A DNA stretch of 64,000 nucleotides from Eledone cirrhosa (Eukaryota): contig OZ024763.1 in the NCBI GenBank assembly GCA_964016885.1, positions 6,882,001-6,946,000 on the forward strand. Direction: 5' to 3'. The position numbers were made by a program, and so were the translations under genes. Under the pieces are notes generated by a model. That model was not told the origin of the DNA. It saw nothing but the letters and a program-made list of their open reading frames with translations, and did not search any database. Shown here piece by piece: positions 27,995-60,505 of the stretch (positions within the stretch are counted from its first letter, which is position 1; each line of letters begins with the position of its first letter).

Positions 27995-28816
27995 CACCAA
28001 CCATTTTACGCCATGTACTGGGTGCATCTATCATTATGCAGTAATACAGAAGATCCACGTTCCTTTGGGGACTGGCTGAAGCATACATATAGTATGTACA
28101 ACCCCTACCACCATCCACCCCACTCTCCCATACATCCATGAAGACAGGCTGAAGTATACATCCAGTGAAGCACCCAGTCCACACTGTAAAGTGGTCATGT
28201 AGGTGTCACGACAAAAAGCACCCAGTCCACACTGTAAAGTGGTCATGTAGGTGTCACGACAAAAAGCACCCAGTCCACACTGTAAAGTGGTCATGTAGGT
28301 GTTACGACAAAAAGCACCCAGTCCACACTGTAGAGTGGTCATGTAGGTGTCACGACAAAAAGCACCCAGCCCACACTGTAAAGTGGTCATGTAGGTGTCA
28401 CGACAAAAAGCACCCAGCCCACACTGTAAAGTGGTCATGTAGGTGTCACGACAAAAAGCACCCGGCCCACACTGTAAATTGGTTGTGTAGGTGTCACGAC
28501 AAAAAGCACCCAGTCCACACTGTAAAGTGGTCATGTAGGTGTCACGACAAAAAGCACCCAGTCCACACTGTAAAGTGGTCATGTAGGTGTCACGACAAAA
28601 AGCACCCAGTCCACATTGTAAAGTGGTTAAGATGGTGTCATGACAAAAAGCACCCGGCCCACACTGTAAAGTGGTCATGTAGGTGTCACGACAAAAAGCA
28701 CCCAGTCCACACTGTAAAGTGGTCGTGTAGGTGTCACGACAAAAAGTACCCAGTCGACACTGTAAAGTGGTCATGTAGGTGTCATGAGAAAAAGTACCCA
28801 GTCCACACTGTAAAGT
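27995..28816 (+). mobile_element. RTE LINE 3' UTR fragment with 48-bp unit expanded to about 13.5 copies (28168-28816)
   Basis: GCAGTAATACAGAAGA...GCTGAAGCATA matches RTE copies at 60170 and 63480, followed by the unit AAGCACCCAGTCCACACTGTAAAGTGGTCATGTAGGTGTCACGACAAA. Confidence 0.85.
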
Positions 28817-33616: not shown

Positions 33617-34510
33617 TGTCCACATTGTAAAGTGGTCATGCTGGTCACACAACAAAAAACACCTAGCTCATACTGTAAAATGGTTGTGTTGGTGACACGA
33701 CAAAGAGCACCCAGTCAACACTGTAAAGTGGTTGTGTTGGTGCCACAACAAAAATGACCCAGCCCACACTGTAGAGTGGACGTGTGGGTGACATGACAAA
33801 TAACACCCAGTCCACACTGCAAAGTAGTTGAGTTGGTGAGACAACAAAAAACACCCAGTCCACACTGTAAAGTGGTCATGTAGGTGTCACGACAAAAAGC
33901 ACCCAGTCCACACTGTAAAGTGGTCATGTAGGTGTCACGACAAAAAGCACCCAGTCCACACTGTAAAGTGGTCATGTAGGAGTCACAACAAAAAACACCC
34001 AGCCCACACTGTAAAGTGGTCATGTAGGTGTCACGACAAAAAGCACCCAGTCCACACTGTAAAGTGGTCATGTAGGTGTCACGACAAAAAGCACCCAGTC
34101 CAGACTGTAAAGTGGTCATGTAGGTGTCACAACAAAAAGTATCCAGCACACACTGTAAAGTGGTCATGTAGGTGTCACGACAAAAAGCACCCAGCCCACA
34201 CTGTAAAGTGGTCATGTAGGTGTCACGACAAAAAGCACCCAGTCCAGACTGTAAAGTGGTGATGTAGGTGTCACAACAAAAAGTATCCAGCACACACTGT
34301 AAAGTGGTGATGTAGGCATCACAACAAAAAGTACCCAGCACACACTGTAAAGTGGTGATGTAGGCATCACAACAAAAAGTACCCAGCACACACTGTAAAG
34401 TGGTCATGTAGGAGTCACAACAAAAAGTACCCAGCACACACTGTAAATGTGTTTGGTGTTAGGAAGGACATCCAGCCATAGAAACCTTGCCAGAACAGTT
34501 CTGTATGGGT
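33617..34510 (+). mobile_element. RTE 3' UTR with about 17 copies of the 48-bp unit (diverged at left, homogeneous at right)
   Basis: Array runs into GGTGTTAGGAAGGACATCCAGCCATAGAAACC, the RTE terminal UTR. Confidence 0.85.
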
Positions 34511-55803: not shown

Positions 55804-58165
55804 TCATCATCATCACTGTTTAATGTCCATTTTTCCACGCTAGCATGTGTTAGACAAGTTATCCTGTTTTGAGCAATGTTAGGTCAGGTGACCATGTCTT
55901 GCTCATACAGAATCAATTTTGGCTTGGTTTCTACAGCTGGATGTCCTTCCTAGCGACAACCTCATTTACAGTGTGGACTGGGTGCTTTTTGTCGTGACAC
56001 CTACATGACCACTTTACAGTGTGGGCTGGGTGCTTTTTGTCGTGACACCTACATGACCACTTTTCAGTGTGGACTGGGTGCTTTTTGTTGTGACACCTAC
56101 ATGACCACCTTACAGTGTGGACTGGGTGCTTTTTGTCGTGACACCTACATAAACACTTTACAGTGTGGACTGGGTGCTTTTTGTCGTGACACCTACACGA
56201 CCACTTTACAGTGTGGTCTGGGTGCTTTTTGTCGTGAGACCTACATGACCACTTTACAGTGTGGACTGGGTACTTTTTGTTGTGTCACCTGCACGACCAC
56301 TTTACAGTGTGGACTGGGTGCTTTTTGTTGTGACACCTACATGACCACTTTACAGTGTGGACTGGGTGCTTTTTGTTGTGACACCTACATGACCACTTTA
56401 CAGTGTGGACTGGGTACTTTTTGTTGTGACAGCTACATGACCACTTTACAGTGTGGACTGGGTACTTTTTGTTGTGACACCTACACGACCACTTTACAGT
56501 GTGGACTGGGTGCTTTTTGTTGTGACACCTACACGACCACTTTACAGTGTGGACTGGGTGCTTTTTGTTGTGACACCTACATGACCACTTTACAGTGTGG
56601 ACTGGGTGCTTTTTGTCATGACACCTACACGACCACTCTACAGTGTGGACTGGGTGCTTTTTGTCGTGACACCTACATGACCACTTTACAGTGTGGACTG
56701 GGTGCTTTTTGTCGTGACACCTACACGACCACTTTACAGTGTGGTCTGGGTGCTTTTTGTCGTGACACCTACATGACCACTCTACAGTGTGGACTGGGTG
56801 CTTTTTGTCGTGACACCTACATGACCAGTCTACAGTGTGGACTGGGTGCTTTTTGTCGTGACACCTACAAGACCACTTTACAGTGTGGTCTGGGTGCTTT
56901 TTGTCGTGACACCTACACGACCACTTTACAGTGTGGACTGGGTGCTTTTTGTCATGACACCTACATGACCACTTTACAGTGTGGACTGGGTGCTTTTTGT
57001 CGTGACACCTACATGACCACTTTACAGTGTGGACTGGGTGCTTTTTGTCATGACACCTACAAGACCACTTTACAGTGTGGTCTGGGTGCTTTTTGTTGTG
57101 ACACCTACATGACCACTTTACAGTGTGGACTGGGTACTTTTTGTCGTGACACCTACATGACCACTCTACAGTGTGGACTGGGTGCTTTTTGTCATGACAC
57201 CTACACGACCACTTTACAGTGTGGACTGGGTGCTTTTTGTTGTGACACCTACATGACCACTTTACAGTGTGGACTGGGTGCTTTTTGTCATGACACCTAC
57301 ATGACCACTTTACAGTGTGGACTGGGTGCTTTTTGTCATGACACCTACAAGACCACTTTACAGTGTGGTCTGGGTGCTTTTTGTTGTGACACCTACATGA
57401 CCACTTTACAGTGTGGTCTGGGTGCTTTTTGTTGTGACACCTACATGACCACTTTACAGTGTGGACTGGGTGCTTTTTGTCATGACACCTACAAGACCAC
57501 TTTACAGTGTGGTCTGGGTGCTTTTTGTCATGACACCTACATGACCACTTTACAGTGTGGACTGGGTGCTTTTTGTCATGACACCTACATGACCACTTTA
57601 CAGTGTGGACTGGGTGCTTTTTGTCATGACACCTACAAGACCACTTTACAGTGTGGTCTGGGTGCTTTTTGTCATGACACCTACATGACCACTTTACAGT
57701 GTGGTCTGGGTGCTTTTTGTTGTGACACCTACATGACCACTTTACAGTGTGGTCTGGGTGCTTTTTGTTGTGACACCTACATGACCACTTTACAGTGTGG
57801 TCTGGGTACTTCATTAGATGTATGCTTCAGCCTGTCCTTATGGGAGATGTACAGAAGAGTGGGGTGGGTGATGGTGGAGGTTGTACATACTATATGTATG
57901 CTTCAGCTTTGACCTGTGCCCATTTCAAGGTGGGCCTTCTCTATTACTGCATAACACCAGAGATATTGATCCTGTGTCATCCTCTTTGAGAGGTGCAATT
58001 GGGCAAGGTCAGCTTCTCGTCCCAAGTTTCCTGGGTCTCCCACTCCATGGCTTCCATCGACTTTGAGTGTTCTACGGATATTTATGGAGCTGCCATCCTT
58101 CATATGAACAAATACAGACAGTAGTCCCATCTCATCAGTCGACAGCTAGAGAGGTGTTTCATTGC
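55804..58165 (-). mobile_element. RTE LINE 3' end with about 38 copies of the 48-bp unit in its 3' UTR (55965-57810)
   Basis: (CAT)n tail at 55804, terminal UTR, array, then decayed ORF end ([23 protein letters not shown]) matching 59926-60210. Confidence 0.9.
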
Positions 58166-58217
58166 TTTATATATATATGTATATATATATATATGTATAT
58201 GTATATATATGTATATG

Positions 58218-58277
<60 letters not shown>

Positions 58278-58300
58278 CATATATATATACATATATATAC

Positions 58301-58331
<31 letters not shown>

Positions 58332-58478
58332 CATATTAGAAATTGGAATAAATGCTCTGAAATAGCGATATATATGTGAATATAGACATAGAATATTCGA
58401 AAATATTCTGTATGTTTATAATAAACATTTTGAAGACCTAATCGCTATAGAATAGAATACGTCACGTATTACAATTAG

Positions 58479-58567
58479 ATTCTCGACAAAAGCAAGGGAA
58501 GTAATCTACGCGTTTCATTCTTTTTAGAAATCATCAGGACCACATATCCAGTGCTTTTATCGAGAAT
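58479..58567 (-). ncRNA. Type I hammerhead ribozyme (inverted copy)
   Basis: Exact reverse complement of 58842-58930. Confidence 0.75.
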
Positions 58568-58841
58568 GACACAGCTAGATAGGAAACGCGTAGATTACTT
58601 CCCTTGCTTTTGTCGAGAATCTAATTGTAATACGTGACGTATTCTATTCTATAGCGATTAGGTCTTCAAAATGTTTATTATAAACATACAGAATATTTTC
58701 GAATATTCTATGTCTATATTCACATATATATCGCTATTTCAGAGCATTTATTCCAATTTCTAATTTCTGCCGGACCGGCAACCGCTCTTTCAAACCAGTT
58801 CCTGTACACAGCTAAGTATTCTATAAGTCTCTAGCTGTGTC

Positions 58842-58930
58842 ATTCTCGATAAAAGCACTGGATATGTGGTCCTGATGATTTCTAAAAAGAATGAAACGCG
58901 TAGATTACTTCCCTTGCTTTTGTCGAGAAT
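58842..58930 (+). ncRNA. Type I hammerhead ribozyme, copy 1 (predicted cleavage after 58902)
   Basis: Stem I distal ATTCTCGATAAAAGCA/TGCTTTTGTCGAGAAT and proximal GTGGTC/GATTAC; core CTGATGA 58872-58878; stem II TTCT-AAAA-AGAA closed by U.U; GAAA; palindromic ACGCGT stem III; GUA triplet. Confidence 0.8.
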
Positions 58931-59151
58931 CTAATTGTAATACGTGACGTATTCTATTCTATAGCGATTAGGTCTTCAAAATGTTTATTATAAACATACA
59001 GAATATTTTCGAATATTCTATGTCTATATTCACATATATATCGCTATTTCAGAGCATTTATTCCAATTTCTAATTTCTGCCGGACCGGCAACCGCTCTTT
59101 CAAACCAGTTCCTGTACACAGCTAAGTATTCTATAAGTCTCTAGCTGTGTC

Positions 59152-59240
59152 ATTCTCGATAAAAGCACTGGATATGTGGTCCTGATGATTTCTAAAAAGA
59201 ATGAAACGCGTAGATTACTTCCCTTGCTTTTGTCGAGAAT
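59152..59240 (+). ncRNA. Type I hammerhead ribozyme, copy 2 (predicted cleavage after 59212)
   Basis: Identical to copy 1, offset +310. Confidence 0.8.
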
Positions 59241-59461
59241 CTAATTGTAATACGTGACGTATTCTATTCTATAGCGATTAGGTCTTCAAAATGTTTATTA
59301 TAAACATACAGAATATTTTCGAATATTCTATGTCTATATTCACATATATATCGCTATTTCAGAGCATTTATTCCAATTTCTAATTTCTGCCGGACCGGCA
59401 ACCGCTCTTTCAAACCAGTTCCTGTACACAGCTAAGTATTCTATAAGTCTCTAGCTGTGTC

Positions 59462-59550
59462 ATTCTCGATAAAAGCACTGGATATGTGGTCCTGATGATT
59501 TCTAAAAAGAATGAAACGCGTAGATTACTTCCCTTGCTTTTGTCGAGAAT
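59462..59550 (+). ncRNA. Type I hammerhead ribozyme, copy 3 (predicted cleavage after 59522)
   Basis: Identical to copy 1, offset +620. Confidence 0.8.
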
Positions 59551-59667
59551 CTAATTGTAATACGTGACGTATTCTATTCTATAGCGATTAGGTCTTCAAA
59601 ATGTTTATTATAAACATACAGAATATTTTCGAATATTCTATGTCTATATTCACATATATACATATAT

Positions 59668-59698
<31 letters not shown>

Positions 59699-59707
59699 CA
59701 TACATAT

Positions 59708-60505
59708 GGCACCTAGTCCACACTGTAAAGTGGTCATGTAGGTGTCACGACAAAAAGCACCCAGTCCACACTGTAAAGTGGTCATGTAGGTGTCACGACA
59801 AAAAGCACCCAGTCCACACTGTAAAGTGGTCATGTAGGTGTCACGACAAAAAGCACCCAGACCACACTGTAAAGTGGTCATGTAGGTGTCACAGTAATAT
59901 ACGTGAACGACAAAGCATAAATGAATTGAGAGAGAGACTGAGCATAAGAGGAATCAAATGCTGTGTGCAGGCGAGGCGGTTGCGCTGGTATGGACATGTG
60001 ATGCGTATGAAGGATGACAGCTGCATAAAAAGGTGCAGAGCACTAGAAGTCGATGGAAACCGCGGAGTGGGGAGACCCAAGATGACTTGGGATGAGGTGA
60101 TAAAAGCCGACCTTACCCAACTACACCTCTCAAAGTCAATGACACACGACCGTGACTTCTGGCGTCACGCAGTAATACAGGGTACCCGACCTCCCATGGG
60201 TACATGCTGAAGCATATAAACAATATGCCCCCACACCCCCCACCGCAAGGTGGTCGTGGAGGTGCCACGGCAAAAAAGCACCCAGCCCACACTGTAAAGT
60301 GGACATGTAGGCGCCACGAAAAAGCACCCAGCACTCACTGTAAATGAGGTTGGTGTTAGGAAGGGCATCCAGCTGTAGAAATCAAGCCAGATCAGTTCCT
60401 GTATGAGCAAGGCATGGTCAGCCGACCAGACACTGCCCACAACAGGACAACCCGTCTAACCCATGCTAGCGTGGAAGAACGGACGTAAAACAGTGATGAT
60501 GATGA
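59708..60505 (+). mobile_element. RTE LINE 3' end (ORF C-terminus 59890-60210, UTR, (GAT)n tail) preceded by about 4 orphan 48-bp units
   Basis: LRERLSIRGIKCCVQARRLRWYGHVMRM...GRPKMTWDEVIKADL...DRDFWR. Confidence 0.9.

Follow-up and report, generated by a model that had tools for sequence, protein, structure and literature searches.

The tandem repeat spanning positions 58335-59660 of the window (the whole analysed stretch of 64,000 nt from Eledone cirrhosa, contig OZ024763.1) is a single insertion of a very young, dispersed retrozyme family. Its units are non-coding and carry a predicted hammerhead ribozyme, and their tandem transcripts probably self-cleave, circularise and are copied in trans into (TA)n tracts by a Penelope-like element (PLE). 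The genomic copies of the family are dispersed; their outer ends are fixed and their inner ends random, haplotypes extend over whole arrays, and the ribozyme bears the imprint of selection.

Anatomy of the locus

Identity at a lag of 310 nt was 100% over 58583-59660 (3.48 units), and 58335-58579 was a perfect inverted copy of 245 nt (Table 1). With the unit numbered from the predicted cleavage site, the two arms diverge: the junction lies between their 5' ends (unit positions 238 and 301), and TA repeats follow their 3' ends (172 and 138). The tandem layout was without LTRs, with a GC content of 34.5%, and the longest stop-free frame in the repeat had 59 codons.

The preliminary description of this DNA had reported three direct hammerhead copies 310 nt apart and one on the minus strand, a lack of coding capacity, a TA-rich microsatellite context and a 16-bp extension of stem I. 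All of these were borne out: the cores were present as described, no frame was longer than the one given above, TA-type repeats flanked both ends, and the extension appeared in the computed fold (58842-58857 with 58915-58930, including one G-U pair). The head-to-head, fixed-end anatomy, absent from that description, is the most informative part of the locus.

A 48-bp tandem repeat family was present on both sides of the retrozyme in opposite orientation, beside LINE-end-like fragments (55965-57810, 59702-59893, 28168-28816 and 33620-34447 of the window). A promoter scan remained at chance level, using a bacterial model that is not applicable here.

Table 1. Features of the retrozyme locus, in coordinates of the window.
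Feature	Position	Strand	Remarks
(TA)n-type target microsatellite, left	58168..58334	.	
Inverted, 5'-truncated arm, 0.79 unit	58335..58579	-	unit 238 to 172; 'long' end with ~35-nt tail
Type I hammerhead of inverted arm	58501..58543	-	predicted cut after 58507
Head-to-head junction, 3 nt	58580..58582	.	no match to either arm
Tandem arm, 3.48 identical 310-nt units	58583..59660	+	unit 301 to 138; 'short' end merging into TA
Hammerhead 3' half (fifth, partial)	58583..58598	+	opens truncated plus-strand arm
Extended stem I	58842..58930	+	16-bp helix that closes the ribozyme and, in the circular fold, the circle
Type I hammerhead 1	58866..58908	+	predicted cut after GUA at 58902
Predicted monomer 1	58903..59212	+	310 nt; GC 34.5%; circular fold z = -3.7
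Two inferred reverse-transcription start zones (PLE 'tail'), in monomer 1	59026..59074	+	unit 124-139 and 160-172; from anatomy and PMC11167929
Type I hammerhead 2	59176..59218	+	predicted cut after 59212
Predicted monomer 2	59213..59522	+	
Type I hammerhead 3	59486..59528	+	predicted cut after 59522
(TA)n-type target microsatellite, right	59661..59706	.	

A predicted hammerhead ribozyme in each unit

The core CTGATGA-TTTCTAAAAAGAAT-GAAACGCGTA was located on the plus strand at 58872-58902, 59182-59212 and 59492-59522, and on the minus strand at 58537-58507. The predicted ribozyme comprises a stem I of GUGGUC/GAUUAC, a canonical core, a U-U pair at the base of stem II, the triplet GUA, and a stem III formed by the palindrome ACGCGU. 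As the Rfam scan, a check proposed in the preliminary description, yielded 62 matches at E<=1 but none to a hammerhead family (only low-complexity miRNA matches), the hammerhead assignment is based on the descriptor together with tests of covariation and selection.

The unit matched the descriptor of a type I hammerhead with a palindromic mini stem III, as previously claimed. Covariation of core and stems among genomic copies, which the preliminary description had named as a point to be checked, was found across four subfamilies for stems I-III and the C3-G8/U3-A8 pair: the stem sequences of sister subfamilies differ yet pair, and subfamily B has U3-A8 in place of C3-G8, a core pair whose importance has been demonstrated (PMC11167929). 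A sequence-only alignment of the four subfamily hammerheads was one column off the structural register, hence no count of pairs is given.

A single hammerhead copy was predicted to misfold. The computed minimum-energy fold of a two-unit transcript was a double hammerhead with paired ACGCGU palindromes, in agreement with the dimer-type ribozyme anticipated from the sequence; dimer cleavage of PLE hammerheads is reportedly the subject of an earlier published study. The monomer was predicted to adopt a stable self-paired circular fold (minimum free energy of -67.4 vs -49.0±5.0 in 100 shuffles).

Within the 43-nt ribozyme, the structure was kept by 9 of the 9 array-wide alleles of the window's subfamily (A1, see below) and by 2 of the 13 single-unit alleles (p = 2e-4). 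The compatibility rule that defines 'keeping the structure' was devised for this analysis, and 30 of the 129 possible ribozyme alleles satisfy it. These proportions are evidence of selection on the ribozyme in transposing lineages, self-cleavage itself being a prediction.

Family size, subfamilies and age

The hammerhead pattern of subfamilies A1 and A2 had 18,201 matches in the genome vs 0 for the reversed control, which rules out chance occurrence. The shared terminal motif occurred 21,028 times and the long-end junction, in one exact form, 1,032 times, both with 0 control matches. The family consists of at least 1,032 arrays dispersed over many contigs; the genome-wide copy number, left to be established by the preliminary description, is above 1,000 arrays. 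The approximately 18,000 units amount to roughly 5.6 Mb (by multiplication) and represent a live source of insertion variation in the Eledone cirrhosa genome.

An assembly artefact, raised beforehand as a possible source of the tandem units, was rejected on the basis of the more than 1,000 loci, the distinct inner junctions and flanks of the mapped ones, and short-read contigs containing the same variants and many inversion joints (one run possibly being the assembly's own sample). A single 340-nt contig (unit plus overlap) was present in three runs of unrecorded kind, an outcome expected from a circle and from a tandem array alike and hence uninformative.

The array in the window belongs to subfamily A1, with the sister subfamilies A2 (312 nt), B (320 nt) and B2 (about 330 nt). 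Per base, the rate of single-unit differences was about 0.04% for A1 and 0.16% for A2; the family is very young, and A2 is older than A1.

Insertion anatomy across loci

In the A1 set, composed of the 30 best-scoring loci (29 fetched plus the window) and biased to long arrays, 26 loci were head-to-head pairs, and all 26 pairs combined one short (124-139) and one long (160-172) end, outer-end positions being expressed as nt past the cleavage site. Among the 38 A2 loci, 31 were pairs (25 long+short, 2 long+long and 4 other). To remove the bias, the first 61 long-end matches on one contig (C1), in coordinate order, were examined in 60 stretches. These included 53 pairs, of which 46 were long+short and none long+long, the remaining seven having an arm running off the fetched stretch or a small rearrangement at the junction. 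Of the seven loci showing one arm, one was due to a gap, three had an arm that occupied all of the 5 kb fetched, and three were true single arms.

Outer ends ran into (TA)4 in 112 of 124 cases, and both ends of the insertion lay within (TA)n, where a target-site duplication is unreadable. Of 110 inner junctions, 63 overlapped by 1-16 nt, 17 were blunt and 30 had extra bases.

The fixed outer ends are the Penelope 'tail'. An inverted truncated copy, a one-sided tail of 30-40 bp and TA targeting are described as PLE features (Craig et al., 10.1101/2021.04.23.441226), and the length of the tail equals the spacing of the two internal sites at which the PLE protein, which cuts and extends both target strands, starts reverse transcription (Frangieh et al. 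2024, PMC11167929).

Array haplotypes and the template of copying

Haplotypes were compared over 90 A1 loci (~715 units), retaining columns with at least three units, trimming 12 nt at arm ends and leaving out foreign short arms in L055, L292 and L299. Variant events were array-wide in 124 cases (105 across both arms), confined to a single unit in 90 and partial in 12. Eleven array-wide alleles were private to one locus, and indels of 1-2 nt were array-wide in seven loci, producing 311-nt units in six arrays and 308-nt units in one, with no unit-to-unit indel heterogeneity at 899 junctions. Inner ends were uniformly distributed on the unit (KS p = 0.53), those of A2 taken alone being non-uniform before refinement (p = 0.028), and 4 of 220 lay within 3 nt of the cleavage site vs 4.3 expected if uniform. 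The lengths of long-end arms (60 arms, 3 censored; mean = 1.67 kb) fitted an exponential distribution (p = 0.79).

As the family is so young, each array records one copying event, and each was likely made at insertion, copied from one RNA circle. A monomer bottleneck combined with multi-lap copying explains the private array-wide variants, the uniform inner ends and the exponential lengths.

Alternatively, a PLE could have copied an uncut linear multimer, or jumped among linear monomers, with circles incidental or absent. Uncleaved, unprocessed linear RNA is the chief PLE substrate in vitro (PMC11167929), a result that also counts against a circular template; moreover, pure donors give pure daughters, and random 5' truncation would likewise yield uniform inner ends. 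However, an array copied from a linear multimer can be no longer than its template, and a new variant has no route into all of its units, whereas the 11 private alleles and three indel alleles occupied every unit of their arrays, the longest of which had about 16 units. A ribozyme under selection further implies that cleavage is part of the route. Jumps among monomers should leave an accumulation of ends or scars at the cleavage site, where the number of inner ends did not exceed expectation, and they are at odds with the homogeneity of the 899 junctions. A linear template is therefore considered unlikely.

Very unlikely is the insertion of monomers or short pLTR remnants followed by local growth through unequal crossover or gene conversion, although some shuffling was visible in a 22-unit A2 array (L228), which contained 9 of the 19 partial variants of A2, and in the few A1 arrays with the 12 partial events. 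Local growth predicts many partial variants, but these made up 12 of 226 events, and the arrays are long yet nearly undiverged. Opposite arms also share haplotypes, both end at reverse-transcription start positions, and lengths are exponential. Local satellite growth was rejected on the scarcity of partial variants, the shared arm haplotypes and the fixed ends.

Counting against copying from a circle are the 19 partial variants of A2 and three A1 arrays with irregular haplotypes: one partial variant was confined to a single arm (L299), and the haplotype switched mid-arm in L264 and L291, in the latter at three linked sites at once. These patterns may reflect a change of template, a nested insertion or conversion.

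Just after unit position 2, a 1-nt insertion had become array-wide twice independently (L241, L249, L274, L284, L280 and L293), i.e. two of the three array-wide indel alleles compared to 0 of 15 singleton indels. Being near the predicted ligation site, they are possibly a ligation scar or a selected bulge in stem I. Single-unit changes were strand-biased in A1 and A2 arrays (C>T 28 vs G>A 9; T>C 20 vs A>G 7), as if many of them were reverse transcriptase (RT) errors, the bias being weaker in the larger A1 set.

A candidate partner element

Mobilisation in trans by a Penelope-type RT, proposed in the preliminary description, agrees with the PLE tail and the inversion, but among the sampled loci no autonomous element shared sequence with the retrozyme. 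No RT or GIY-YIG ORF was found in the unit or its arrays (window and A1/A2 loci examined), and no parent PLE ending in retrozyme sequence was present in 50 RT-centred loci, 50 GIY-YIG loci and 301 fetched sequences, so that the expected linkage to such ORFs was not recovered. Homology of a pLTR to the unit was likewise absent among the sampled PLE loci, which are a small share of the 10,597 GIY-YIG candidates. That the units are terminal repeats of an autonomous PLE with an unsampled coding part is hardly credible, since, even if the anatomy matches PLE ends and a second arm was not visible in 7 of 60 sampled loci, not one of the 90 A1 and 38 A2 loci continued into a PLE ORF, nearby PLE fragments were separate insertions, none of 50 GIY-YIG loci ended in the unit, and the unit reads directly into itself.

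Two sets of apparent parents were rejected: an RT fragment beside L049, which is a separate insertion on the opposite strand, and matches in L095, L099, L302 and L346, which are sister retrozymes adjoining a PLE. A Pif1 helicase fragment (L049:1844-2839), probably from a Helitron, lay between the PLE RT fragment and the 16.8-unit single-arm array of L049.

A very young two-ORF element (L091-L107, e.g. L092:3628-5982 and L095:6202-7569) possessed an intact 784-aa frame with RT and GIY-YIG domains (protein in L092), and its CxxC linker makes it Neptune-type by published description (10.1101/2021.04.23.441226). All 11 complete insertions had one end of each class. A hammerhead-like motif preceded these ends by 126 and 164 nt, distances close to 130 and 165 of the retrozyme. 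The end of the element had no similarity to the 310-nt unit (score of 68 vs 66±8 in shuffles). We regard it as a candidate partner and no more.

The upstream frame of the Neptune-type element (455 aa) was without Pfam match, its tandem junctions read through the long end, and in its hammerhead-like motif GCA replaced GAA in 29 of 29 matched copies. Several older Neptune-like families (L302, L315, L331 and others) had, downstream of the ORF, a U3-A8 hammerhead variant with a palindromic ACCGGU stem III. At least three further hammerhead repeat families were encountered (L059:877-2275; L120; L031; L106:6930-7800), one of them with ~466-nt tandem units, and these were often nested in the same TA tracts.

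Proposed mechanism

In the proposed cycle, read-through transcription of an array would be followed by pairing of adjacent ribozymes via the ACGCGU palindrome and cleavage after GUA, releasing 310-nt monomers. A host ligase would close the monomer, and its ribozyme, now without a partner, is predicted to misfold and remain intact. A PLE protein would then nick both strands of a TA tract, and on each strand reverse transcription would begin from its own fixed internal site, the two sites being ~35 nt apart. Each RT would circle the monomer and fall off at random, and the two cDNA ends would be joined, often via microhomology of 1-5 nt, into a head-to-head array. The acting enzyme would be a Penelope-like RT-endonuclease, probably Neptune-type.

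Besides the in vitro preference for linear RNA, several observations weigh against this scheme: one of nine Xenopus retrozyme dimers was cleaved in vitro (bioRxiv 10.64898/2026.07.22.740005), in the axolotl, monomer activity is weak where stem II has a U-U base (PMC7229834), and 6 of 31 pairs in A2 deviated from the long+short arrangement.

Comparison with known systems

The family is a non-LTR retrozyme, a described kind (PMC7229834; bioRxiv 10.64898/2026.07.22.740005); what is new is the anatomy, namely the head-to-head arms, fixed outer ends and array-wide haplotypes. It resembles the metazoan non-LTR retrozymes described by Cervera & de la Pena (2020, PMC7229834) in its tandem non-coding units (170-400 nt in those elements), one type I hammerhead per unit, GC below 50%, self-paired fold and co-occurring PLEs. 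The Eledone motif unites features of two axolotl ribozymes: the 1-bp stem III and palindromic tetraloop seen in HHR_Amex1, and the U-U at the base of stem II seen in HHR_Amex2. In the Eledone arrays, unlike in those retrozymes, the arms are joined head-to-head and terminate at two fixed ends within (TA)n; the main text of that article mentions target duplications but does not contain the words 'inverted', 'microsatellite', 'octopus' or 'cephalopod'. Circles were demonstrated for those elements, whereas those of the Eledone family are predicted from DNA.

Vertebrate retrozymes are likewise described as co-occurring with PLEs, with a proposed dependence on them, based on co-distribution and pLTR homology and with local tandem growth suggested (Li, Clavereau & Pollet, bioRxiv 10.64898/2026.07.22.740005). 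In contrast, no homologous pLTR was found for the Eledone family among the sampled loci, and its anatomy and haplotypes point to multimers at insertion. For animal retrozymes in general, PLE mobilisation and reverse transcription of circles have been put forward as proposals (PMC7229834; bioRxiv 10.64898/2026.07.22.740005).

With the EN+ PLEs Neptune, Poseidon and Naiad (10.1101/2021.04.23.441226; PMC11167929), the family shares the inverted 5'-truncated copy, the tail (30-40 bp in those elements), TA-microsatellite targets, two internal RT start sites and the hammerhead, which in these PLEs is located in the pLTR. It differs from them by the absence of an ORF, a unit of 310 nt rather than 3-4 kb and arms of up to 22 units.

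A literature search, short on subscription journals and key supplements, retrieved no report of retrozymes in cephalopods, of retrozyme arrays arranged head-to-head or of retrozymes changing through editing. By combining PLE end chemistry, a single-monomer bottleneck and ribozyme selection, the family offers an unusually clean genomic record of the proposed mechanism. It also provides what a direct test in the existing in vitro PLE assay would need: a defined substrate (310-nt circle, starts near 130/165, TA target) and a candidate enzyme that is intact.

A possible contribution of RNA editing

The host is presumably an octopod with high ADAR activity. With variant polarity assigned by the commonest letter, A>G changes represented 7 of 24 array-wide alleles compared to 6 of 90 singletons (p = 0.006), and the A>G:C>T ratio was 7:2 array-wide vs 6:17 in singletons (p = 0.015). 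In subfamily B, the four array-wide variants, which came from a single locus out of 22, included no A>G; this lends no support to editing but has little power. Selection tolerating A-U to G-U changes could account for part of the A>G excess.

We put forward only tentatively, and with some doubt, that a circular ribozyme RNA is copied in rolling-circle fashion by a two-start PLE, that A-to-I edits written back into DNA drive the evolution of the family, and that the switches in L264 and L291 are RT jumps between circles. The array-wide A>G sites were mostly located at predicted A-U pairs of the long stem, and all four combinations were present at sites 20 and 276.
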